From the IMG/VR virus record IMGVR_UViG_3300045988_056900: a DNA stretch of 64,000 nt; one strand, given 5' to 3'. The position numbers were made by a program, and so were the translations under genes. Shown in pieces: positions 5,689 to 62,701 of this stretch; the stretch's first letter is position 1, and every line of letters starts with the position of its first letter. Below the pieces are notes generated by a model. The model did no database searches, had not been told where the DNA came from, and was given only the letters and a program-made list of their open reading frames with translations. The DNA is from a virus.

Positions 5689-5805
5689 AAACAAATAAAG
5701 AAATTAAGAGACTGTAGAGGGAGACCTTACCCCTTGGTAAAAGATAACATACTAATTAACTGTGTTAGTAACTTTTTTTCGTGAAAACTCGGTAATGGAT
5801 TACAG

Positions 5806-6831
5806 ATGAAAAGATATAATAATTTATTTGACAAAATAGTAACTTTAGACAATTTATATCTAGCGGATAAAAGAGCTAGAAGACAAAAACAACATAGACC
5901 TGAAATAATTAATTTTGATAAGAATAGAGAAAAATTACTTTTAGATCTATAGAAGAAATTAATAGATGGTGAATATAAGACTTCTGAATATTATATATTC
6001 AAGATATATGAACCTAAAGAAAGAGAAATATTCAAGCTTCCATACTATCCAGATAGAATAGTACATCATGCTATTATGAACATTATGGAACCTATTTGGG
6101 TATCATCTTTCATTAAAGGAACTTATAGTTGTATAAAAAATCGTGGTATACATAAAGCTCTGAAAGATGTTAAGTTCGCACTGAAAGATGAAGCCAATAC
6201 AAAATACTGTCTTAAGTTAGATGTCAGAAAATTTTATCCTTCAATAGATCATGATATATTAAAATAGTTAATAAGAAGAAAAGTAAAAGATAAGAAACTA
6301 TTAGTTATATTAGATGAAATAATAGATTCTGCATAGGGAGTACCTATTGGCAATTACTTATCACAATTCTTCGCTAATTTATATTTAACATATCTAGATC
6401 ACTGGATCAAAGAAGAAAAACATATAAAATACTATTTCAGATACGCAGATGATATTGTAATACTTCATAGTGATAAAGACTATTTAAGATAGTTGTTTAA
6501 GGATATGAAGTAGTACTTAGAAGAGAGGCTTAACATTAACTTTAAAGATAATTGGCAAATATTTAAAGTTGACGATAGAGGAATAGATTTCGTAGGGTAT
6601 AAGATATTTCATACTCACACTCTGTTAAGAAAGCATATTAAGAAGAACTTCTGTAAAAGAGTAAGTAAATTGAACAAGAAAGATAACTTAGACAAGAGTG
6701 CTTATCAATAGAAAATATGTAGTTATATAGGTTGGATTAAGTACTGTAATGGTCGTAATTTATTTAGTAAAATGACTAAATATAAAGAGCTATTGCGATA
6801 CATATCAAAAAGTAAGAAGAAGAAAACCTAA
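5806..6831 (+). CDS. DGR reverse transcriptase, read through six in-frame TAGs (5950, 6265, 6334, 6490, 6511, 6709)
   Basis: GVPIGNYLSQFFANLYL is the DGR-RT signature (IGxxxSQ) and FRYADDIVIL is the YxDD box. All fragments share one frame and the gene ends at TAA 6829. Confidence 0.9.
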
Positions 6832-39305: not shown

Positions 39306-40239
39306 GAGTATGGTCCCAATTTCCTGTCTGATAATGATATGAAATTTCTGTTAAAGTATTTGCTATTAGGTCTTTACGGTCCAATAACTCTTTTTCATTT
39401 AACATATTAAATACACGTACTTCATTGTTACCATTACTTTGGATAGCAATAATATACGCTTCAAGATCATAGTCTTCTATATCGTAACCTTCCTCTTTCA
39501 TATACCAAGTAAGAGCAAGAATATAGAAGGCTATTTGTCTATAGTAATCGTATTCTTCTACAGAATGCTTAAAATTATAGACATCGGCGGTTGTTTTTAA
39601 GTCAATAAGAGTAATCTTTCTATTAGCATGATCAATCTTAACCCTATCTAATAGCGACTTACAAGATACTCTTTGTTTCTCTGCCTCCCAGTTTATATGA
39701 AACTCGTTATGACATTCCATACCTGGTTGGTCTGTAAGCAGTTCATCTGCTTTTATATGCTTTTCAATATTATCTTTAATATTCTTAAGCATATTTAAAT
39801 CTGCAAACGATATAATCGTATATAGATCTGTTTTCTCTAGAGCTTCTATATATTCAGCAAACTTGAGTTGTAACTCCTTTGCTTTTTTTAACATAGCATC
39901 TCTAGACATATTGTTACCAGAATATGCAAACTTATATGCATCTAGAAGCTTATCTTCTTCTACTATTTCCGCAGATGAATGATAACGTTCACAGAATGCT
40001 GTTTGTTGTGCCGTTTTAGGCTTTTCATAATCAATAACAATATAATTATGCCAGAACTCATCTGGCTGAAGAAGATACATATGTATCATAGTACCTTTAT
40101 CAAGATACTTAGCACTTATACCTTCTTCTTTACCGTCAAGCATATCCTTGAGGTAACGTGGTCCTTTCTTCAAGAACCACCCGATTGCTGAATTTGATAT
40201 TCGCGTGTTATCTTCATAATACGGAATCTCTATTTTCAT
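39265..40239 (-). CDS. PD-(D/E)XK (RecB/Cas4-like) nuclease
   Basis: LDRVKIDHANRKITLIDLKTT is a D...D/ExK core. YRQIAFYILAL matches the QxxxY motif of this family. Confidence 0.75.
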   Translation of the reverse strand: MKIEIPYYEDNTRISNSAIGWFLKKGPRYLKDMLDGKEEGISAKYLDKGTMIHMYLLQPDEFWHNYIVIDYEKPKTAQQTAFCERYHSSAEIVEEDKLLDAYKFAYSGNNMSRDAMLKKAKELQLKFAEYIEALEKTDLYTIISFADLNMLKNIKDNIEKHIKADELLTDQPGMECHNEFHINWEAEKQRVSCKSLLDRVKIDHANRKITLIDLKTTADVYNFKHSVEEYDYYRQIAFYILALTWYMKEEGYDIEDYDLEAYIIAIQSNGNNEVRVFNMLNEKELLDRKDLIANTLTEISYHYQTGNWDHTREYYENNGTESLK

Positions 40240-44170: not shown

Positions 44171-44198
44171 TCTGATAAACTCTGACAATTTCTGATAA
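44171..44198 (-). promoter_or_regulatory. Three 10-bp-phased TTATCAGA-type repeats upstream of gene 43400..44140
   Basis: On the plus strand: TCTGATAA 44171, TCTGACAA 44181 and TCTGATAA 44191. Confidence 0.45.
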
Positions 44199-46191: not shown

Positions 46192-46246
46192 ATTCTCATA
46201 TATTATACGAGCATACGGTATTTGAAATATATCTGATAAGCCTTTG

Positions 46247-48226: not shown

Positions 48227-48246
48227 AATTAATAATGTTAGTTTGA

Positions 48247-48303
48247 GTCTGTGGAGGGAATCGAACCCTCATTTAACAGTTTTTCCATTTAAACTACACA
48301 GAC
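48247..48303 (-). ncRNA. tRNA-like element lacking an anticodon arm (57 nt)
   Basis: GTCTGTG-TA-GTTT-AAATGGAA-AAAC-TGTTAAAT-GAGGG-TTCGATT-CCCTC-CACAGAC. It has a perfect 7-bp acceptor stem, a D arm with GG and a canonical T arm, but only 8 nt where the anticodon arm should be. Confidence 0.55.
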
Positions 48304-48356: not shown

Positions 48357-48806
48357 TTAGGCGGCTAGCGAAGCCTTTGTTGTACTTGTTTTTCGTACAT
48401 ACGTTTTCTTAAACGCTACAAGGGAAGCTTTGTACTTAGCCTTGTCTTCTTTGCTTTGTTTAATAGATTTTGCTTTAGATTGTTTCATATGAATAATCAT
48501 ATGATCAAACTTAACTTGAGCATCGAGCTGTTTTCTGTCGTATTTATTAAACCTAGGATAATTGATAGATTGAAATACGAAAGTACTTTTTCTCTTTTCA
48601 ACAAGAGCTTTTGCTCTTTCTCGTTTAACTTTTCTACGAGCTTTAAGTTCTTCACTATAGAAGTTTTTTGGTTTAACCTCTTCTTCAGAAGTAATTTGTT
48701 TTACTCGAAATACTCTTCTTTCTGCTTTTCGAGCATTTCTTGCTGCAACTCTCTCTTCACTACGTGCTATTTTATATTCTTCTTTTCTGTTTTTATCTAT
48801 TTTCAT
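48357..48806 (-). CDS. Lys/Arg-rich hypothetical protein ending in -SLAA
   Basis: Intact 149-aa ORF with a TAA stop. Confidence 0.8.
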   Translation of the reverse strand: MKIDKNRKEEYKIARSEERVAARNARKAERRVFRVKQITSEEEVKPKNFYSEELKARRKVKRERAKALVEKRKSTFVFQSINYPRFNKYDRKQLDAQVKFDHMIIHMKQSKAKSIKQSKEDKAKYKASLVAFKKTYVRKTSTTKASLAA

Positions 48807-48831: not shown

Positions 48832-49596
48832 TTATGCTGCTAAAAGTTTTGATTTAGTGTAATAGGTCCAATTGTTATTACTTAAATCTTCAACGGTTAT
48901 TCCGGTGAACTTATCATTGTTTTCGTACTTCTTAGCTAATACTTTTACTTTAGAGAATGCTTCTTCTTTATCATTAGCATCTAAATAATCCGTGTAGAAG
49001 TCTGTACTTTTCATAGGATTATCTTCGCTTTGATTCTGTACTACATAACGGAACTTACGAGTGTTCTTTTTGTTATTTAGCACTTCTCTTCCTTTCTTTA
49101 GGAATTCTAAAACAGAAGCCTTCACCTCATTTATATGAGGTCTACTGGCTAACAGTTCAGCTTTATACTCTTTTTCACGTTGAAATCTAACCTTGATTTC
49201 TTCATCAGTTAGATTAACTGGTTTCGGCTGAACAAACAGTCGTTTTCTAATTAATCGAGTGAACTTCTTCTTCTCTTTCCTAGTATAATGAACTGTAGGT
49301 TCAAATCCAGCGCTTGCTAGAATTTGCTTAATAAGCTCCTTCTTAGCTTGTTTAGCTGTTTTATTTTCCTGACGAGAGTTCTTTCCTACTTCTGTAGTAT
49401 AGCTTTTTTGCTTAACTTTACCAACTATGTTGGTTATTATTACTTTCCCATTCTCACCCTTTGTAATATAGGGAGATGGACCCGGTCTTCTAAATACTTC
49501 TTCTACTTTCTTAGATCTACGTAATTTAGAACGGTTAGTTCTCGATAATTTTTTTCCTTTATGATCTTTATGTTTACCTGATAAATTCTTTTTCAT
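48832..49596 (-). CDS. Lys/Arg-rich hypothetical protein ending in -LLAA
   Basis: Intact 254-aa ORF with a TAA stop. Confidence 0.8.
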   Translation of the reverse strand: MKKNLSGKHKDHKGKKLSRTNRSKLRRSKKVEEVFRRPGPSPYITKGENGKVIITNIVGKVKQKSYTTEVGKNSRQENKTAKQAKKELIKQILASAGFEPTVHYTRKEKKKFTRLIRKRLFVQPKPVNLTDEEIKVRFQREKEYKAELLASRPHINEVKASVLEFLKKGREVLNNKKNTRKFRYVVQNQSEDNPMKSTDFYTDYLDANDKEEAFSKVKVLAKKYENNDKFTGITVEDLSNNNWTYYTKSKLLAA

Positions 49597-49649: not shown

Positions 49650-50159
49650 TTAAGCGGCTAGACAAATAGGAGCTGATTCAATATCAAGTTCAGCTTTGTC
49701 ATTAAAATCTTCTAAGTCTTTATTCAACTTATTAATTTCTATCTGCAGCTTATTCTTTATATTGCTGATGTAAGCTGAAGTGAGTTCCTCACTAATATTC
49801 AGATTCTTTTTGCCTTTAGCTCGCTTTATCTTTGGGTCGATTGTTTTAATCTTCCCTAAATGAAACAGTTGTTCCTGTTTCTCGGATAGTGAAAATATTG
49901 TATAATAGTTATTTTCTGCTGGTAAATCAGAGAACTTCTTATAACCCATATTAATACATTGTAAATACAGTTTCATAAGAATTCGTTCTTCTGCCATTTC
50001 TTGAATCTTCGTTAACAGTACCTTAAGGTCATAATTACGAATAGTTCCTTTAGAAATGATATTTTCGTTTTTAATAATCGTCCAATATTTAGTAATATCT
50101 TTACTAAGTTCATCGCGACGATTTTTTGCATATTTAGATGTAATTGATTTCATATTCAA
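49650..50159 (-). CDS. Coiled-coil hypothetical protein ending in -CLAA
   Basis: Intact 169-aa ORF with a TAA stop. Confidence 0.8.
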   Translation of the reverse strand: MNMKSITSKYAKNRRDELSKDITKYWTIIKNENIISKGTIRNYDLKVLLTKIQEMAEERILMKLYLQCINMGYKKFSDLPAENNYYTIFSLSEKQEQLFHLGKIKTIDPKIKRAKGKKNLNISEELTSAYISNIKNKLQIEINKLNKDLEDFNDKAELDIESAPICLAA

Positions 50160-50374: not shown

Positions 50375-50950
50375 TTATAAATCATCACGTTCAACAATTT
50401 TTATTTCTTTTGCAAAATAGACCGGTAGAATCCGTCCGTCTGTTGTTTTAGCACCAACATATAGTTTATTTCCTGTTTCAGAAACTCCTACACTTCGGTT
50501 ATGTTCTTTTTCATTCGAATACTTTTGTAAATACTTTTCATTGATATACTTAGAATGTAGTTCTCCGTTCGTACTACTTCTTACTACATCAAATAAAATA
50601 TCTACCATTTTATCCAAATCATTATTATCGGTAGCTTCTTTTAATATGGCATTCATAATACCATAAAAAGCTTCCTCATTTCTTGCTTCTCCAGTTCCAG
50701 ACATTGTGTCTGCTAATTTGATTGCTATATCAGTAATACTCACCAGTCCATGAGCATTAAAGAACCGTTGCCACCATCTAGGACCACTTCCATAGTACAA
50801 GATAATCTGTCCATCCTCTTGTATATCTACTTTTTTAGGTCTTTCGTTAATTCTCCCATTCAAGATCTTAACTTTTGCTAAAACAGCTGGTTCATAAATA
50901 ATTAGCATACGCAAGATATCAACCCGGGAAGGTGATAATCTTCCGTTCAT
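50375..50950 (-). CDS. Hypothetical protein
   Basis: Intact 191-aa ORF. Confidence 0.8.
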   Translation of the reverse strand: MNGRLSPSRVDILRMLIIYEPAVLAKVKILNGRINERPKKVDIQEDGQIILYYGSGPRWWQRFFNAHGLVSITDIAIKLADTMSGTGEARNEEAFYGIMNAILKEATDNNDLDKMVDILFDVVRSSTNGELHSKYINEKYLQKYSNEKEHNRSVGVSETGNKLYVGAKTTDGRILPVYFAKEIKIVERDDL

Positions 50951-50955
50951 ATCTG

Positions 50956-51588
50956 TTATTCTGTTGTAGTAGTTTCAACATGCACGTTTACTTCTACATC
51001 ACTTCCAATACCACACTGCCGCATATAATCAGTATAAATGCGTTTGTTAGCATCGGAATAACCTCGAACTGTCTTAGACAGATTCAAGCAGTGACGAGCA
51101 AAGTTCTCGTAGTGAGTAATAGCACCCATGTTAGCTTCCTCAACTAATTTGTCGAGATTCGGCAAATCTTCAGCTGAGAAAAACATCGGACTAGCTCCGC
51201 TCTTACCAAGGCGGTCAATTGCTTCCGTAACGTTAGCCCGGGTAGCTTTGCTGAAATCCGGTTCAGCTATTTCGAACATCAAAGGTTCAACACCAGGAAT
51301 GTCCTTGTTGATAGCAATCTTCGGCCGTTGATCAAGATCCTTAGCGACAATACTTACACTCATGATATCAATAGCTTTAATAATATAAGCTTTGATCTCA
51401 TTGCGGAAAGTATTGATGCCATTCATGACGTCTTCCTTGTACTTAGGATCTGGATTTACTGCGATAATAGTAAATAACTGCTTACCGAAGTAAGGACCAT
51501 ATTTCTGTGCCACTTGCCGGTTACGTGCTAAGATTTGTGCAGCTGCGTTAGGAATCTGCGGTGCACTGTTGTTATTCAAATTTTCCAT
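50956..51588 (-). CDS. Hypothetical protein (visibly more GC-rich than its neighbours)
   Basis: Intact 210-aa ORF. Shadow ORFs appear on the opposite strand. Confidence 0.8.
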   Translation of the reverse strand: MENLNNNSAPQIPNAAAQILARNRQVAQKYGPYFGKQLFTIIAVNPDPKYKEDVMNGINTFRNEIKAYIIKAIDIMSVSIVAKDLDQRPKIAINKDIPGVEPLMFEIAEPDFSKATRANVTEAIDRLGKSGASPMFFSAEDLPNLDKLVEEANMGAITHYENFARHCLNLSKTVRGYSDANKRIYTDYMRQCGIGSDVEVNVHVETTTTE

Positions 51589-51780
51589 AAAAAATGTTCC
51601 CTTCTTGAGTCCGCATTTGATATACCAATACAGATCATTTTTTAGTTTTTAAGTTAATAATAAGTTAATGCTCTCCACTGTTCGATTATTTTATAGCATT
51701 ACAATAATGGTAATGGTGAATTCAATCACATAATCTACTAGGTATTAAAATAATAAATGTTAATTTATTTGAAAATATCT

Positions 51781-51819
51781 TCTGATAAATTCTCTGATAA
51801 TTTCTGTTAATTCTGATAT
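51781..51819 (-). promoter_or_regulatory. Array of four TTATCAGA-type repeats
   Basis: On the plus strand: TCTGATAA 51781, TCTGATAA 51793, TCTGTTAA 51803 and TCTGATAT 51812. Confidence 0.45.
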
Positions 51820-53736
51820 GTTTATCGTCCCGTTTCGACGGTTAAGATTCAACTTTTTCGATGCTTAACGCACCTCTCACCGTTATTTTATATCGCGATT
51901 AGATGCAATATAAAAGACATAGATCATTGACTAATGGTAAGTCTACCTAGTATTTCCGGATTATCGAAATTCATAGAATTACGGTCGTTTATCTAACGTT
52001 ACCAACTCACAAGCCCATTACTTATAGTATGGCCCACTTGTACCATGCATAGGATTTGTTGTTTATTCTGCTCGAACACGAGGATTTCCACCTCTCATCG
52101 TCTCCTTGTTGCTCAATTGTTATTACTATTGAGTCGAAATGTACTACGCCCTTTAATCTACCGAGACAGGGTGATAGGCGACAGGTTATTAACGAATCAG
52201 CGTTCTCTTTACATATATACTTGCAATATATACTTTAGGAGTTTCTAATGTCAGCGATGACGGTTGGCAGTCTGGGGTGGATCATACTCCTTATCTGACT
52301 ACTTTACAACAGTAGTTTGCTATCTCTGTACTCGCCATTGAACTTCCCAATTTGGTAAAGATTAATAATGTTAACAATTCACTTAGAACAGATTTAACTA
52401 GGCCGGTTCTATTCGGCATTAACTTTCAGATGCAGTAAAGTAACATCATCTGTTACAGTCTTACCTCTCTGGTTCCAGGGTTCTAAGCTGGAGCAGCTTG
52501 GCTCTTACTCATTAATTTATTGTTTTTGACCACTACTAATATCTCCTACTCTGGAATGAGTGTGATAATCTAGCAATGCACCTTTACATATCTTAAAAGG
52601 TATAAGCTCTGCTGTTTTTTACGAGGAGTTTTCTAAGCTTCTCCTTAGTATTATTTATCATTATAATCACACTTGCTAAAGGTGTGTAACGATTAGAATC
52701 AGGGTTATTGCGCCCTCAAACCGCTTAGACACTCTTGGTCTATTCATTCCTCATTCAATTATACTCACACGAACGAATAAGCACGTGAGTCACTTTAGAC
52801 TTGAAAGACGGTATCAATCTCATATACCTCATCCCTTATACGTAAATTCTTTTGCGGCACGCTAGTTACGGTAGCGCACAGGATTGGCTCCTGCTCCCTG
52901 GTAATCAGTCTATTTTCACTATAATTTTAACATAGTTACTTAGGATCATTGCATGTCCAGCCTTCATATCTTTACTTTGTATAAGTATGTACCATAACAC
53001 GGTTATCCTTACATTAGTATCAGTAATTACTCCCTTTATATTATGAACCAATTATCATAAAAACACTAGAGTTAGCCTATTTTTCCAATCAGGACGCATA
53101 GTTGCGTTTTTGTATGAAGCGAGGTTGGAACCCGCTTGTTGCGTTAGTCAGCCATAATGTATTTTTCGATAATCCTTTTCCAAGGGATTATCCAAGAACC
53201 CTTTGTCCTTGTTTCAGCATCGTGTTCATATTCCTTCTTGAGTCACATCTTGATTGACGCATACGAATATAGAGATTTCGTTCTCTTTTTGAGGATTAAG
53301 GATTTCATCTTTTGTAGTTTTTATTTGCTTATTGCTACGAATTCATCTCCTCGGTTTTGAATTAATTTGTAACTAGGGTATCTTCTTGTAGCTCCTATAT
53401 TACGGGTTCTTCACTCTTAATATCACCAGACGGTTCTCATATTAACAGCGCAGGCTATTCACCCTCTCCTGCTTTCTTATACCTTTTTCACCAGTATAAG
53501 TTATTATCCTACCTTTTGAGTATCTCACAGTGTTAGCTGCTACGAAGCATCTCATAACTACTTCTTACATATTCTCGGATTCTGTCTTTTTTCGGGCTAT
53601 GTGTAAATGGACACAAACTCCCTGACGCAGTAGTACTTAAAAACTTCCTTCTGTGACTGCCGGAGTGATTTACGCTATAGTTTTACTCCTCTCGAACTAT
53701 GATATAATTATAGTATTTATATAGCGGCTATTATCA
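51820..53736. other. ~1.9 kb ORF-free, hairpin-rich, high-complexity region; candidate large non-coding RNA(s), strand unknown
   Basis: There is no minus-strand ORF of 60 aa or more. Only two plus-strand loci are listed (52045/52056 and 53157), and both translate as low-complexity. In the stretches I translated, TAA, TGA and TAG all occur in every frame. Confidence 0.5.
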
Positions 53737-54162
53737 TTAACTATTTTCCGCTGAGGATTTATCTTCTCCTGTAATTTCTGACTCTGGTTTTACAAGAAAT
53801 ATGTCTCCAGAAGATAAGTTGATGTTTGCAACCACCTTCTTACCCCGGCATATATCAACTATGCCATTTTTTATATCATTACTACTGATATAATCAATTG
53901 GATCCATACGTCCTGGATCAAAACCATCCAAGTGCACGCATATACTACTTACAGACGAGCGTAAGTACTGTTCTACGAATAAGATGTTACTTATACTAGC
54001 TTTCGCTTGTACCTGTATCATATTAGAACTTTCTCCGGCTACTATAAAGTAACCGGTTTGATCTACTACCAAATCTAAATTACGCCTAGCATCTTTGCTA
54101 TTTCGTATAATACGTGATAGTCGCATCATACTATTAAGCATAATAAGATTCTTCTTACTCAT
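53737..54162 (-). CDS. Hypothetical protein
   Basis: Intact 141-aa ORF that overlaps the upstream gene by 8 nt. Confidence 0.75.
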   Translation of the reverse strand: MSKKNLIMLNSMMRLSRIIRNSKDARRNLDLVVDQTGYFIVAGESSNMIQVQAKASISNILFVEQYLRSSVSSICVHLDGFDPGRMDPIDYISSNDIKNGIVDICRGKKVVANINLSSGDIFLVKPESEITGEDKSSAENS

Positions 54163-56222: not shown

Positions 56223-56591
56223 TCAACTATCATCCTCATAAGCTGGCGAGTCTCTGCCCTTAGTAGTATGACCACTAACTAATGCGTCTGATAATACTTC
56301 GGATGGATATGAAATGTAACTCATTACTCCTGACTGGCATGTAGTCTCTGTCACTAAAACTACTGGTAATGTGCAATCCATATCCGTATTATCTACGGTA
56401 TTAATTAGCTGGATAATAGAAGCTGTAGTATCATTTTTAGTAAAATGATTTACAGCCTCTTTACCCAACATACCTACTAATAGACCAGCTAATATAGTGA
56501 ATAGAAATACCCACCACATTTTTGTGGAACGCATAGCGCGTGCTAATACTGCTCCAAATAGAAGCAATACTAAAATCCATGTTGCTGACAT
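56223..56591 (-). CDS. Two-TM membrane protein immediately downstream of the sigma factor (possible anti-sigma)
   Basis: WILVLLLFGAVLA and WWVFLFTILAGLLVGML helices. Lies 11 nt after the sigma gene. Confidence 0.7.
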   Translation of the reverse strand: MSATWILVLLLFGAVLARAMRSTKMWWVFLFTILAGLLVGMLGKEAVNHFTKNDTTASIIQLINTVDNTDMDCTLPVVLVTETTCQSGVMSYISYPSEVLSDALVSGHTTKGRDSPAYEDDS

Positions 56592-56602
56592 AATTAGTAA
56601 AT

Positions 56603-57178
56603 TTAATCTGTTAATAATTCTTTTAGTTTCTCTCTTGCCTTATTAAGGCGTGATTTAACTTGAGACTCTGTGAGTCCAAGATGCTCTGAAATCTGTTTGT
56701 AAGACAGATTTTGTATAGAGCGTAGTTCAATTATATTCCTATACTTCCAACGAAGTCGCGACAAGGCATTATCTAGAGCATCACTTTTCTCTGAGAAGAT
56801 ATAATCTTCTTCAGGTGAATAACTGGCCTGGCTACTCAACTGCAGAGAGTTGGCATCGTCGTCAATCCAATAGTTCGCTTTTTCCTTTTTAGTATGTCGA
56901 ATATAATCAATACTAGTATTTATTGCAATAGTTTTTAACCACATCTCAAATGAGATATTGTTTATATAACTATCTAGCTTACTAAAAGCTTTAGTAAAAG
57001 TAACTGATAATAAATCATCAGCTACATCTTTATTATTTACAATATAATAAATTGTATTATAAATAATCTTACTAAAACGATTATAAAGCCTTGTGAAGGC
57101 AGATTGTTTACCTTCTTTTGCCTGTTTGATCAGTTCGAAAATCTGTTGCTTTTCTAAATCTGTCATAATTACGGGCAT
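56603..57178 (-). CDS. ECF-type sigma-70 family RNA polymerase sigma factor
   Basis: Region-2-like DVADDLLSVTFTKAFSKLDSY...WLKTIAINTSIDYIR and region-4 HTH LSYKQISEHLGLTESQVKSRLNKAREKL. Confidence 0.8.
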   Translation of the reverse strand: MPVIMTDLEKQQIFELIKQAKEGKQSAFTRLYNRFSKIIYNTIYYIVNNKDVADDLLSVTFTKAFSKLDSYINNISFEMWLKTIAINTSIDYIRHTKKEKANYWIDDDANSLQLSSQASYSPEEDYIFSEKSDALDNALSRLRWKYRNIIELRSIQNLSYKQISEHLGLTESQVKSRLNKAREKLKELLTD

Positions 57179-58136: not shown

Positions 58137-58321
58137 GGTTTATTGATTTCTTTTTTAAAGTTATCTACTATACCAGATACTTGATCCATAGTTAGTTGTG
58201 GATATTTATCCATTACTTTACCTATTGCTTCAATATCTGATTTGCTTTCGTTCAACATTTTCTTGAACTCTCTCTCTTCTTGTCTGGAGTCAAACCAAAC
58301 CCACCAAGGTACTACGCGCAT
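58133..58321 (-). CDS. Small hypothetical protein
   Basis: 62-aa ORF with a 4-nt overlap to its downstream neighbour and a 10-nt overlap to its upstream neighbour. Confidence 0.6.
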   Translation of the reverse strand: MRVVPWWVWFDSRQEEREFKKMLNESKSDIEAIGKVMDKYPQLTMDQVSGIVDNFKKEINKP

Positions 58322-58590
58322 TGATATTCGTATTCTTTAATTTTGTTATTCAATAGCTCCCATTTTTCCTTGTCGATATCAGTTGCTTCTACTAAGTAGA
58401 TGATATCACAAGATGCTCTAAATACACCACGAATGTAGTTCATTCCCTCTTTATAATGATATTTGTTCTTATAAATTCTGGGAACATTTGCATGTAGACG
58501 AGTTATTAACTCTGTCTTCATTTTCAGTTCTGTTGCAGCTTTCTCCCATGATTCTGGTAAGTTCTGCCTAATAAAGTTCATTAATCCCAT
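58312..58590 (-). CDS. Small hypothetical protein
   Basis: Intact 92-aa ORF. Confidence 0.7.
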   Translation of the reverse strand: MGLMNFIRQNLPESWEKAATELKMKTELITRLHANVPRIYKNKYHYKEGMNYIRGVFRASCDIIYLVEATDIDKEKWELLNNKIKEYEYQCA

Positions 58591-58627
58591 TTCAAATTAA
58601 TTTATTGATTAAACTTAATTTAATTGT

Positions 58628-58686
58628 GGCATTAGAGGGAATCGAACCCTCTAACAGCTCTTACGTCTGATCTAGCCTGATATGCC
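58628..58686 (-). ncRNA. Divergent tRNA-like minihelix element (59 nt)
   Basis: GGCA...TGCC (4 bp) stacked on an 8-bp T-arm-like hairpin TTAGAGGG-TTCGATT-CCCTCTAA, giving a 12-bp minihelix equivalent, plus one internal arm with a 14-nt loop. Lies 37 nt upstream of ATG 58590. Confidence 0.4.
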
Positions 58687-59101
58687 TTACCACTTAGTTT
58701 TATATTTATTAAAATACTACGAGGCGACTGTCACTATTTCTAGCGCTAAAATCTATTTCACAACCCCATCATTAGTAACAGTTTCTCTTTAAATAAAGAG
58801 TTGTTAACCAGGATACTGTATGCTCCCCTGGGGATATCTCACGCTGCTAAGCGTGTATAATCCATTACATAACTTGTATTGCCAGTTATCTGCTTATTGA
58901 CCTATTCTACTTCACATTGTCGCAGTCAAATGCCTAGATGCCCCATTTAAAGTAGTACTCTTACAAAATTTAACTTATAGTTTGAGTACTACTCCCGATC
59001 TTCCTATCGCTGTTAATGAAAAAACTCTTAGAGAGAAATCGAAAATTAGCGTAAGATTTCTATACGGGCCTCTTATTATTCTTGCTTATTCCATTTTTTG
59101 T

Positions 59102-59157
59102 GGAGCATGAGGGAGTCGAACCCTCGTCCTAACGACTGATTCATAGACCTAACAGTC
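59102..59157 (-). ncRNA. tRNA 3'-half-like element
   Basis: GACTG-(14-nt loop TTAGGTCTATGAAT)-CAGTC-GTTAGGAC-GAGGG-TTCGACT-CCCTC-ATGCTCC. No adjacent 5' acceptor strand or D arm. Confidence 0.4.
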
Positions 59158-59788
59158 AATGAGTTTATAAGATTAATTGAAGTATAACTCGCGTACAGAA
59201 TTAAGCCATTCTTCCTGCTTTATTATTTAACACAGTTCACAGCACTCTCTACAGGTGAGCCTTCGTTATGTTATACAATATCCCTGCTATTTTTACAATT
59301 AATCTTATATTGTGACTAGGTAGGCGACCAAACCTACCTAGCCTATGGTCTTTTACGATATTTAAAGTATTCTCATACTATTAATGCCTTGATAACCTGT
59401 CTTGGAAGTATAGAATACTTTTCAGCTTCTATACGGCATGATGTCTAGCATCGCACTATTCCAAAAATGCCGACTTGATATCATAAGAATGCTATTGCAT
59501 AATATACTCAAAGAGTATAGAATCTGTATTTATATATTGCGCAATTTATATATACATCCTCATGATCTTAGGCACATGATCAGTGGCACGTTGTCATAAT
59601 GTCCTACTCTGGCATCGGTTGTATTACTACACCTTACACTTGTTGTATGCATGTCAATTCATGCATGAGCTGCATCTTCTGGTACTTAGCACATAAAATG
59701 TCATCACCACCTATTAGCTACTTTCTCTAGTTAGGTTATATAGTCAGTATTTCTACTGCTAAAACACTATACCTGGACTATGCGCGGA

Positions 59789-60253: not shown

Positions 60254-60300
60254 TTTTTGATAATGTTTAAAGATTGATACTATTGTTAATTAATCTCGAG

Positions 60301-60567
60301 TTATTTACTCTTCTTTTTTGCAAGATATTCTTTACGAAGACGTCTCTTGCGTTGGTTACATGATTCACGTTTACCTGCTTTGACAAGTTTACGATTCTCA
60401 TATGCCTGTTCTCTTTTCCAGCTATTTTCACGAATGAGCTGTAAATAGATAATCTCACGAGCTATATTAGCTTCTGCTTTAGCTTTATGAGCATTGATGC
60501 GTCCTTGAATTATCTCTTTTGACACACCTCTTTTTCTCATTTCTGAGATAATTCTTCTTTGTCCCAT
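60301..60567 (-). CDS. Small highly basic protein
   Basis: 88-aa ORF rich in K and R. Confidence 0.65.
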   Translation of the reverse strand: MGQRRIISEMRKRGVSKEIIQGRINAHKAKAEANIAREIIYLQLIRENSWKREQAYENRKLVKAGKRESCNQRKRRLRKEYLAKKKSK

Positions 60568-60776
60568 ATTTTTGATAATTTGGTTTTAGAATTAAAAAAA
60601 GAACTGTTCTGTATATTCCTATCTCTTATTCTACAGATAACCCCTATCCTTCTCTCCCTTTATCTGTAGATTTACAGATTGCCGTTGAATAGCCATTACA
60701 TAGTAATATGTATTAGGGTTTTGGTATATTTACAGTTCTTTCGGGTTGATTGGAATCCACCATACTAACAATTTAA

Positions 60777-61046
60777 TTAGTAATATAAATCAGGTAAATA
60801 AGGCTCTGGCGGAATCTTATTTACCATTTTTAAGTATTCATCGTAATGAAATATCTTTTTCCATTTTTCTAGTTCTTCATTACGCTTACGTAGAAGTCTT
60901 TCCTGATACGTAAGTTTTGTTGCCATTCTGAGTTTACACTCAAGATCACATTCACTACAGTCGATAATATTATCTTGTGTAGGACATTCGTTAGAAATTG
61001 AATTTGAAGTTTTCATGATCATCTCGACCAAATAAGTGTTTGACAA
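60777..61046 (-). CDS. Small Cys-rich hypothetical protein; start uncertain (alternative Met at 61022 or 61016)
   Basis: 89-aa ORF containing CPTQDNIIDCSECDLEC. Overlaps the upstream gene. Confidence 0.55.
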   Translation of the reverse strand: MSNTYLVEMIMKTSNSISNECPTQDNIIDCSECDLECKLRMATKLTYQERLLRKRNEELEKWKKIFHYDEYLKMVNKIPPEPYLPDLYY

Positions 61047-61972: not shown

Positions 61973-61974
61973 AA

Positions 61975-62223
61975 TTATTGATTAATTACTTTTATTTCTA
62001 TTTCATACTCATCTAATTCTGCCTTAATATCATCAGTAGATGATTCAGACTGAATTTCAAAATATGGACATAATTGAACTTCTTCACTTGGTTTGCTTCT
62101 AGCTATAGCTTTTGCTACAGATATAGGCATACCTAAGATTTTATTTAATGCTAACATATTAGCATAAAGATGACCAGTATGTAGAATCATACTAGTAATG
62201 TACCTTTTGGATTCCTTTTTCAT
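61975..62223 (-). CDS. Small hypothetical protein
   Basis: 82-aa ORF, 2 nt from its neighbour. Confidence 0.65.
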   Translation of the reverse strand: MKKESKRYITSMILHTGHLYANMLALNKILGMPISVAKAIARSKPSEEVQLCPYFEIQSESSTDDIKAELDEYEIEIKVINQ

Positions 62224-62701
62224 TTTTACATAGGCTTTAAAATTGTTAGTTAATAAATATGATGACGTCTGTATACAGCACTATATACAGAATAATTTAC
62301 CGCAGTGCTACGGAGATTTGAGACTAATACTATAAAGCAATAGCGCTCTATTGCACATCTGTTATTAAAGAAATCATTTCCACATATTACTATGTTTAAT
62401 TTAAACCCTCACATGTTTTAGGATTACTCCAGAGTACAAGCAGAAAAGGCTGTCAAACCTAATCTTATCACTCACCTGATTTTAACGTCCGCACGATCGT
62501 AGTATTTGCAATTATCAGTACTAATTAGAGTAATTGCCACCCTTCTTCTCCCGCTTAAAAATACTACTTACGCCCCACAGGCTTGTCATCTTCTGAAGAC
62601 TAGTCTATTCTCACGAACAAACTAGTTGTGTCGAAATTTTTAAACCATTTCTATGCAAAATGCTTCAAAAAACTGTAATAACTTGTTTTAATTATTACTC
62701 T

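Follow-up and report, generated by a model that had tools for sequence, protein, structure and literature searches.

The 64,000-nucleotide (nt) stretch of viral DNA in IMG/VR record IMGVR_UViG_3300045988_056900 (the window) is predicted to encode a very large structured RNA element on its minus strand, and the same element is present family-wide in the Suoliviridae, a family of crAss-like phages. The locus is an open reading frame (ORF)-free gap of 2148 nt at positions 51589-53736, lying between minus-strand genes at 50956-51588 and 53737-54162, and its ∼1.9-kb core (51826-53736) is organized as a chain of covariation-supported hairpins and multi-stem domains. The gap would be a gene for an RNA, read like the neighboring replication and early-middle genes, and the transcript is predicted to fold into a modular chain of at least 20 maintained helices in locally closed domains of 60 to 200 nt. 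Among these would be multi-stem junctions, a hairpin with a GNRA cap, and one or more pseudoknots, and invariant single-stranded motifs would separate the domains. A preliminary description of this DNA, made from its letters alone, had proposed that one or more large noncoding RNAs (ncRNAs) are encoded here, and that proposal is supported by conservation above that of the flanking genes, by the lack of codon periodicity, by compensatory covariation measured against controls, and by strand-specific wobble intermediates.

Coding capacity of the gap

The ∼1.9-kb coding desert originally placed at 51820-53736 is real, with the true gap (51589-53736) extending slightly beyond it, and it is the largest inter-ORF gap within the minus-strand gene block. 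The longest ORF on either strand is 67 amino acids (aa), and the plus-strand ORFs listed previously at 52045, 52056, and 53157 are present but short (67, 60, and 67 aa, respectively). TAA, TAG, and TGA occur in all six frames, in agreement with the earlier view that TAG recoding does not rescue the region, and reassignment of TAG, TGA, TAA, or TAG together with TGA yields at most 170 codons from stop to stop, with no long ORF rescued. The longest stop-to-stop ORF in the standard reading is 83 codons, a length expected by chance (91.7 ± 21 codons over 500 dinucleotide shuffles), and the longest ORFs in the gaps of relatives vary from 57 to 131 codons and are not conserved. A mini-ORF of 10 to 13 codons behind a copy resembling a ribosome-binding site (53264-53233) was considered and rejected; its start is not conserved and it has no periodicity. 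The codon phase of the flanking genes is likewise absent from the gap, where substitutions give p=0.50 compared with p=1e-8 for the upstream 141-aa gene and p=1e-26 for the downstream 210-aa gene, and every 180-nt window of the two flanking coding sequences (CDSs) is phased at below 4e-4. The base composition, described as less AT-rich than other intergenic DNA here, is so only marginally (GC content of 0.362 for the whole gap and ∼0.38 for the core, versus 0.31-0.38 for other intergenic stretches).

Over the gap, the window, which belongs to a human-gut Buchavirus (Crassvirales; Suoliviridae; Loutivirinae), shares 99.6% identity with uncultured phage cr113_1, of the same genus, and further relatives share 99%, 87%, 80%, and ∼74% identity, with the same two flanking genes in every one. 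Within the gap there is a single annotation, of a 145-aa plus-strand "hypothetical protein" in the RefSeq genomes of cr113_1 and cr109_1, located at ∼51861-52298 and equivalent to NC_055896.1 gp20 and NC_055892.1 gp34, antisense to the RNA. This is likely a spurious call, because four TAG read-throughs are required in the window and the frame is interrupted by 8 stops in cr56_1. Together with the recoding of TAG or TGA in late genes of delta-group crAss-like phages (PMC7886860), this annotation is what speaks for a gap that is protein coding after all, through recoded stops, frameshifts, intron-split genes, or short conserved peptides. The limits on recoded ORF length, the destruction of the annotated frame in cr56_1, the lack of codon-phase periodicity, the unconserved ORFs, and the lack of any group I or II intron match effectively refute it.

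Conservation across the Suoliviridae

Homologous loci were collected with the 141-aa flanking gene as an anchor, giving 80 IMG/VR loci, of which 78 extend far enough to cover the gap; the cr6_1 anchor protein contains an in-frame stop and was unusable as an IMG/VR query. All 78 are Loutivirinae loci that contain the gap, at 2020-2224 nt and without a conserved ORF, and gap DNA is 73-75% identical to the window where the flanking proteins share 45-58%. A syntenic ORF-free gap of 1.85-2.55 kb is found in >130 independent assemblies, which come from one unnamed clade and four named subfamilies of the Suoliviridae. It is 2080 nt in Bearivirinae (cr6_1), ∼1.85-2.2 kb in Uncouvirinae (cr125_1 and cr115_1), ∼2.48 kb in Boorivirinae (cr55_1 and cr1_1), and ∼2.54 kb in the unnamed clade (clade X), with the same synteny in each.

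Comparison with third codon positions of the flanking genes, a check that the preliminary description had suggested, shows the gap to be the slower evolving, with a substitution load of 0.90 per site versus 1.4-2.05. Because the gap lacks codon phase and has fewer substitutions than flanking third positions, its evolutionary signature is that of noncoding sequence that is more constrained than synonymous sites. Conserved blocks alternate with indel-rich variable patches, and the length of the gap is tightly constrained within clades. Loutivirinae profile hidden Markov model (HMM) tiles map onto the other clades in identical order and spacing, and the spacing is kept even where the sequence between blocks is unalignable; Block I and Block IV, for example, are ∼1100 nt apart in the window, and this distance is 1040-1100 nt in cr6_1, cr125_1, and cr115_1. 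Two apparent repeats were dismissed. A 17-nt direct repeat flanking the element (53764-53780 and 51790-51806) is not conserved in relatives and is attributed to chance, and GAGAAC, considered as a repeated module, occurs just twice in each element and shows no enrichment in the window.

Covariation and strand

Base pairs in the gap are maintained by compensatory substitutions beyond phylogenetic background. The RNAalifold consensus of 22 representatives of one subfamily (Loutivirinae) has 84 helices and 411 pairs, 155 of them with double compensatory change, and 19 well-paired helices have at least three double-compensatory pairs. Nine alignments in which columns were shuffled within conservation and gap classes gave 21-33 double-compensatory pairs and 0-1 such helices, with consensus energies of -243 to -287 kcal/mol compared with -495.6 kcal/mol for the real alignment. 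A folding-independent scan found 15 antiparallel helices with at least three covarying pairs versus 1 parallel run, and with Watson-Crick pairs only it found 8 helices versus 0 under a fake A-G/C-U rule in the same alignment. Helix 52233-52227:52219-52213 covaries at all seven of its pairs. Five stem-loops had been picked out by eye earlier, and two of these stand. The GATAATCC/GGATTATC stem has 161 Watson-Crick pairs, 7 GU pairs, and 8 mismatches, with six of eight pairs compensatory, and the CTCAAT/ATTGAG stem is supported in the alignment of domain D1 (see below); the other three are present in the sequence but are not maintained as pairs in a crude whole-gap alignment.

G·U wobble intermediates at covarying column pairs number 54 in the minus-strand reading versus 9 in the plus-strand reading (where they are A·C on the minus strand), and the RNA is therefore assigned to the minus strand, co-oriented with all of the neighboring genes. 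The consensus energy is -495.6 for the minus strand versus -460.7 for the plus strand. Strand tests in which wobble pairs entered the helix definition or invariant terminal A-C/G-U columns were counted are uninformative, and only the intermediates at covarying pairs are decisive.

The covariation also bears on whether the gap is a functionless relic in decay (a dead mobile element, an intron, or a pseudogene cluster, for example). A relic would be in keeping with an element of unknown function that matches no known family and has some variable and indel-rich segments, but it is strongly disfavored: the element occupies one syntenic site in all clades with a constrained length, evolves more slowly than neighboring third codon positions, and has compensatory substitutions that reflect ongoing purifying selection on pairing.

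Domain organization

The domains are described here from 5' to 3', and all lie on the minus strand. The 5'-most hairpin (53700-53736; 53736-53728:53707-53700) directly follows the stop codon of the upstream gene and has 8 bp, of which 4 are compensatory; it is 100% paired, with variants UGAUA/UAUCA, UGACA/UGUCA, UAGUA/UACUA, and CAUCA/UGAUG. Another covarying hairpin, identified by eye, lies within the last codons of the upstream 141-aa gene.

Block I (53379-53531) is a pseudoknotted domain conserved in all five clades, with one copy in each of 133 loci (nhmmer, E≤1e-14). It contains helices P1 (53500-53493:53483-53476) and P2 (53472-53468:53454-53450), a pseudoknot between the P2 loop (53464-53461) and 53407-53404, and an invariant GAGAACCG at 53431-53438. 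Its helices were tested with a hand-specified structure, because the helix arms are out of register in the cross-subfamily MAFFT alignment, from which RNAalifold recovered only the pseudoknot. Four of the five P2 pairs are compensatory in a plain MAFFT alignment (A4; 32 sequences from five clades), and the middle pair of the pseudoknot is CG in 11 sequences, AU in 10, GC in 6, and UA in 5, with zero mismatches at that pair. Block I covariation is 0.368; shuffles give 0.145 (0/500), and sliding the pairing gives no more than 0.144.

Block II (53165-53300) has a helix at 53270-53263:53235-53228 and hairpins at 53211-53205:53199-53193 and 53192-53182:53177-53168, the last of which is the GATAATCC/GGATTATC stem, as well as a small hairpin with an invariant AACGAAAU loop; a profile HMM finds this block in four other clades. 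A multi-stem junction domain follows at 52835-52985. Its closing helix (52985-52979:52841-52835) has 7 bp with 5 compensatory and is 100% paired, and one of its inner hairpin helices (52948-52940:52913-52902, 52894-52889:52883-52878, and 52877-52872:52864-52859) has three compensatory pairs.

D1 (52060-52262) is a multi-stem domain of ∼200 nt that lies ∼1.2 kb from Block I; both domains pass formal pair-count tests. D1 is closed by helix 52255-52252:52070-52067, and its hairpins include one with a GCAA (GNRA) cap (52233-52226:52220-52213) and one with the loop UGGAAAU (52094-52091:52083-52080); its single-stranded motifs GAGAACGCUGA and ACUGUCUC are invariant. Of its 34 pairs, 18 have double compensatory change when aligned with plain MAFFT. 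A D1 covariance model built from Loutivirinae only (R1) has exactly one correct-strand, co-linear match per gap in the other subfamilies, with E values of 1e-14 in Bearivirinae, 2e-8 in Boorivirinae, and 1e-6 to 4e-4 in Uncouvirinae, and a weak match in the unnamed clade. In the family-wide D1 alignment 93.8% of cells are paired versus 69.6% when shuffled, 28 of 34 pairs are double-changed, and covariation is 0.457 versus 0.146 (0/500), and at most 0.091 with partners slid. Weak secondary matches to the D1 model (E=0.01-0.05) also occur in two Buorbuivirus-like loci, in each case outside the gap and on the upstream side of the anchor gene (L057, 4356-4482; L075, 4699-4825), and may be chance hits or a partial domain duplicate.

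Block V (51884-52045) comprises hairpins at 52042-52036:52014-52008, 51998-51995:51989-51986, and 51915-51905:51896-51886 and has profile HMM matches in Uncouvirinae (E=4e-15), Boorivirinae, and clade X. Two terminal hairpins at 51826-51869 (51869-51859:51851-51841, with 9 bp and 7 compensatory pairs, and 51840-51837:51829-51826, with 4 bp and 2) are the probable 3' limit of the large RNA. Beyond them lie an A/T-rich variable linker (51760-51825) with two copies of the motif TTATCAGA plus a degenerate copy, and then Block VI (51589-51759). Block VI has a helix at 51735-51730:51689-51684 around a hairpin at 51715-51710:51702-51697, in which all six pairs are compensatory, and a further hairpin just before the start codon (51634-51625:51620-51610); it is conserved in Bearivirinae, Boorivirinae, and clade X. 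Lying behind a TTATCAGA promoter or operator motif, these last ∼170 nt have the appearance of a structured leader of the 210-aa gene.

The TTATCAGA motif and transcription

The repeat array reported on the low-coordinate side of the gap is confirmed as two exact minus-strand copies of TTATCAGA (51781-51788 and 51793-51800) and one degenerate copy. The motif is enriched in the window (12 versus 6.6 expected), and sense copies at 39327-39334, 44171-44198, 46232-46239, 51781-51800, and 56287-56294 lie just upstream of several minus-strand replication-module genes. It is found in sense orientation ∼200 nt before the gap end and the next ATG in the window and in 19 of 20 Loutivirinae loci, the twentieth having ATATCAGA in its place, and it is likewise positioned in Uncouvirinae. 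None of the 20 loci has TTATCAGA inside the RNA body; the next copy upstream is before the 512-aa gene (56287-56294 in the window) or one gene further up. The motif is a candidate phage middle-gene promoter or operator, and the linker copies likely serve as promoter or operator for the downstream genes; it is perhaps linked to the phage ECF-type sigma factor encoded at 56603-57178.

These TTATCAGA positions suggest that the 512/133/141-aa operon is transcribed together with the RNA at its 3' side and that transcription starts anew for the downstream genes. The promoter or operator at 56287-56294 would drive the 512-, 133-, and 141-aa genes, the RNA would form the 3' part of that transcript and possibly be processed into a stable species, and the pair at 51781-51800 would restart transcription for the 210-aa gene through the leader at 51759-51589.

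The region might instead be a DNA-level cis-element, either a replication origin, perhaps transcript primed and with TTATCAGA acting in an iteron-like manner, or a packaging signal with single-stranded DNA hairpins. In favor of this, the locus is part of the replication module and close to the PolB gene, one of its ends has direct TTATCAGA repeats in an A/T-rich stretch, and G-T wobble is tolerated in DNA hairpins too. However, GC skew is monotonic through the locus and the only inflection in the window is at ∼38 kb, which disfavors an origin, and TTATCAGA is not specific to the locus, being found upstream of several other genes in the manner of a promoter or operator. Nested multi-stem domains and a pseudoknot are implausible as DNA extrusions, and 2 kb of high-complexity conserved sequence is atypical of an origin. 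The replication or packaging function that the preliminary description offered as its alternative is thus not supported, and we consider a DNA element very unlikely.

One unit or several elements

The ∼1.9 kb from 53736 to ∼51826 is regarded as one functional unit because domain order and spacing are the same in every clade examined, and the gap probably functions as a single modular RNA of about this size. A less probable reading, though one to be taken seriously, is that the gap is a long intercistronic spacer in which a number of separate cis-acting RNA elements or small RNAs (for example, hairpins for processing or stability, attenuators, and leaders that control the flanking operons) have stayed together by chance. 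Such an arrangement fits well with the supported pairings, all of which are local and span no more than ∼200 nt, with structure that runs from the upstream stop codon right to the downstream start codon, with the leader-like last ∼170 nt behind a promoter or operator motif, with the ordinary folding energy, and with the presence in this genome of other small processing RNAs (Hatchet, RAGATH-9, and RAGATH-20). It fits poorly with the size of the locus, since 2 kb (2% of its genome) is a great deal for a compact phage to devote to cis-regulation, and with a domain order and spacing that are kept across five clades, even over unalignable stretches, at a length tightly constrained within clades. 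The GNRA loop, the pseudoknot, and the invariant single-stranded motifs are more suggestive of a tertiary architecture than of hairpins that simply confer stability, and no internal TTATCAGA divides the RNA body.

Several points weigh against a single large RNA. No pairing beyond ∼200 nt is supported by covariation, and a single global fold is unproven for this reason; the helices predicted to span more than 400 nt are invariant, with 0-2 covarying pairs, in the 22 representatives of one subfamily, where power is limited. Single-sequence folding energy is ordinary, with a mean z score of about -0.5 (D1, z=-0.8). The family-wide D1 alignment (A3) was fitted to the covariance model, which favors pairing, whereas alignments A2 and A4 are plain MAFFT. 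A scan for sigma-70 promoters and intrinsic terminators is convincing at neither end of the locus, and the transcript ends, and even a discrete stable RNA, are inferred from sequence. The flanking proteins yield no functional clue in Pfam, PHROG, homologue clusters, or AlphaFold2 modeling.

The long-range helices proposed by RNAalifold, such as 53076-53061:51683-51670, have zero covariation and were rejected. Only within 60 nt are isolated pairs with strong covariation enriched (14 versus 0-1); farther apart they stay at background, and at distances over 300 nt there are 0, versus 2 and 1 under fake rules. The safest description of the large RNA is a co-linear chain of locally closed domains. 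Thermodynamic stability was dropped as evidence, since z scores in the gap are ordinary and the flanking CDSs are the stable ones. Flanking CDS sequence folds far more stably than its dinucleotide shuffles, with a z score of -6.45 at 50500-50767 (minus strand) and a mean of -3.2 over 11 CDS windows, and there may be extensive mRNA structure in the gene module around the RNA.

The two flanking genes, which code for the 141-aa syntenic anchor (53737-54162, minus strand) and the 210-aa protein (50956-51588, minus strand), are complete and intact in all relatives. Neither product matches Pfam or PHROG; in the neighborhood only an ECF sigma factor, encoded four genes upstream, does. Homologues of the 210-aa protein form 11 clusters, none of them annotated, and the AlphaFold2 model of this protein is unusable (pLDDT of 43).

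Comparison with known large RNAs

All 4227 families of Rfam 15 were compared using cmscan with the window at the gathering threshold, with 51300-54100 at E≤5 with permissive filters, and with the loci of ten relatives, and no family matches the gap in the window or in the ten relatives. The earlier failure to recognize a known RNA family by eye is thus upheld, and with no Rfam match the gap is not GOLLD, ROOL, OLE, HEARO, raiA, a group I or II intron, rRNA, transfer-messenger RNA (tmRNA), or RNase P. An intron was separately rejected, with no match to Intron_gpI, Intron_gpII, or group-II-D1D4 and with the locus lying between two complete genes.

The closest likeness in kind is to GOLLD (RF01998) and ROOL (RF03087), which are likewise large, conserved, multi-domain RNAs of unknown function, borne by phages and containing pseudoknots as well as conserved single-stranded motifs, and which form RNA-only multimeric cages (PMC12286853). 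They often have tRNA genes nearby; here tRNA genes are found 1.2-1.3 kb downstream on the same strand in several relatives, not adjacent, and the window itself has only a truncated 58-nt tRNA-like Rfam match (48246-48303, minus strand) just downstream of the PolB gene. The present locus differs in having no covariance-model match even at E≤5, in being 2-3.5 times longer, in its host phage group (Crassvirales of Bacteroidota), and in that global long-range closure is undemonstrated. OLE (RF01071), raiA, and HEARO/omega RNA are of a similar size class with ornate local architecture, and OLE is a ribonucleoprotein scaffold, but they are cellular or transposon-borne RNAs of 200-650 nt without an Rfam match here; no partner-protein genes are recognizable near the present locus by Pfam or PHROG.

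Like rRNA, the element has conserved cores alternating with variable segments, locally closed domains, and a length of ∼2 kb, comparable to 16S rRNA, but it matches no rRNA model, has no supported long-range helices, and is confined to one phage family. ColE1 RNA II and other transcript-primed origins similarly combine a structured transcript, a replication module, and an adjoining A/T-rich repeat stretch; the present element differs in being four times longer, in that its locus shows no skew inflection, and in that TTATCAGA is generally promoter- or operator-like. Hatchet, RAGATH-9, and RAGATH-20 share the strand and the gene module of the large RNA in this phage, 6-9 kb upstream of it, and differ in being 100-170 nt with Rfam models, none of which match inside 51589-53736. 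Their presence indicates that this phage lineage invests heavily in structured RNAs.

Possible function and significance

The favored mode of action, a trans-acting role in which the RNA would serve as a scaffold, a ribonucleoprotein core, or an RNA-only assembly of the GOLLD/ROOL kind during infection of the Bacteroidota host, is speculative and may well not hold. It is conceivable, though less likely than not, that the whole ∼1.9 kb is a single stable RNA, which would then be the largest structured nonribosomal RNA known from bacteria or their viruses and might act as a ribonucleoprotein core, RNA-only nanostructure, or ribozyme required for Suoliviridae infection. To our knowledge, only a few large ornate ncRNAs are known in bacteria and phages, namely rRNAs, RNase P, tmRNA, group II introns, OLE, GOLLD, ROOL, HEARO, and raiA, and each of these has opened new biology. 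No prior description of the locus was found in a nonexhaustive search of the literature that included crAss genomics papers.

The RNA locus takes up ∼2% of a compact phage genome and would be a conserved and probably essential nonprotein component of Suoliviridae phages. These are among the most abundant phage families of the human gut and are mostly uncultured and poorly understood; as the "delta" crAss-like group, they account for ∼13-18% of crAss-like reads in human gut viromes (PMC7886860). The element also offers a new target for RNA structural biology, with ample natural sequence variation for covariation analysis and cryo-electron microscopy. For annotation, the consequence is that RefSeq carries a likely spurious TAG-read-through protein antisense to the RNA in two genomes.

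Other features of the window

Besides the truncated tRNA-like element, four other RNAs in the window score above the Rfam gathering threshold: the Hatchet self-cleaving ribozyme (62474-62600), RAGATH-9 (60597-60753), and RAGATH-20 (59564-59665), all on the minus strand, and RT-17 RNA (5723-5812, plus strand). Hatchet and RAGATH-9 explain the inter-ORF gaps at 61973-62701 and 60254-60990, respectively.

A second ORF-poor stretch of 1652 nt is present at 58137-59788 (minus strand), especially 58748-59194, and possibly codes for a phage-encoded two-piece tmRNA. It includes an ARAGORN "tmRNA*" call with tag peptide GNTSYVMDYTRLAA, a subthreshold match to permuted tmRNA (RF04321) at 58839-59160 (40.3 bits versus a gathering score of 47; E=1e-5), and an Rfam tmRNA fragment match at 59108-59157, with RAGATH-20 in the same stretch. 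Downstream of the large RNA, three consecutive minus-strand genes (48357-48806, 48832-49596, and 49650-50159) code for proteins ending in -LAA (..KASLAA, ..SKLLAA, and ..APICLAA), like the C terminus of the ssrA degradation tag, and two of these are extremely Lys/Arg-rich. Such ends are intriguing beside a putative phage tmRNA.

The plus-strand block at 1-38000 has long stretches without ORFs of at least 90 aa in the standard code, and a strand switch coincides with the GC-skew inflection at ∼38 kb. This ORF-poor block probably reflects stop-codon recoding in late genes, as in delta-group crAss-like phages (PMC7886860).

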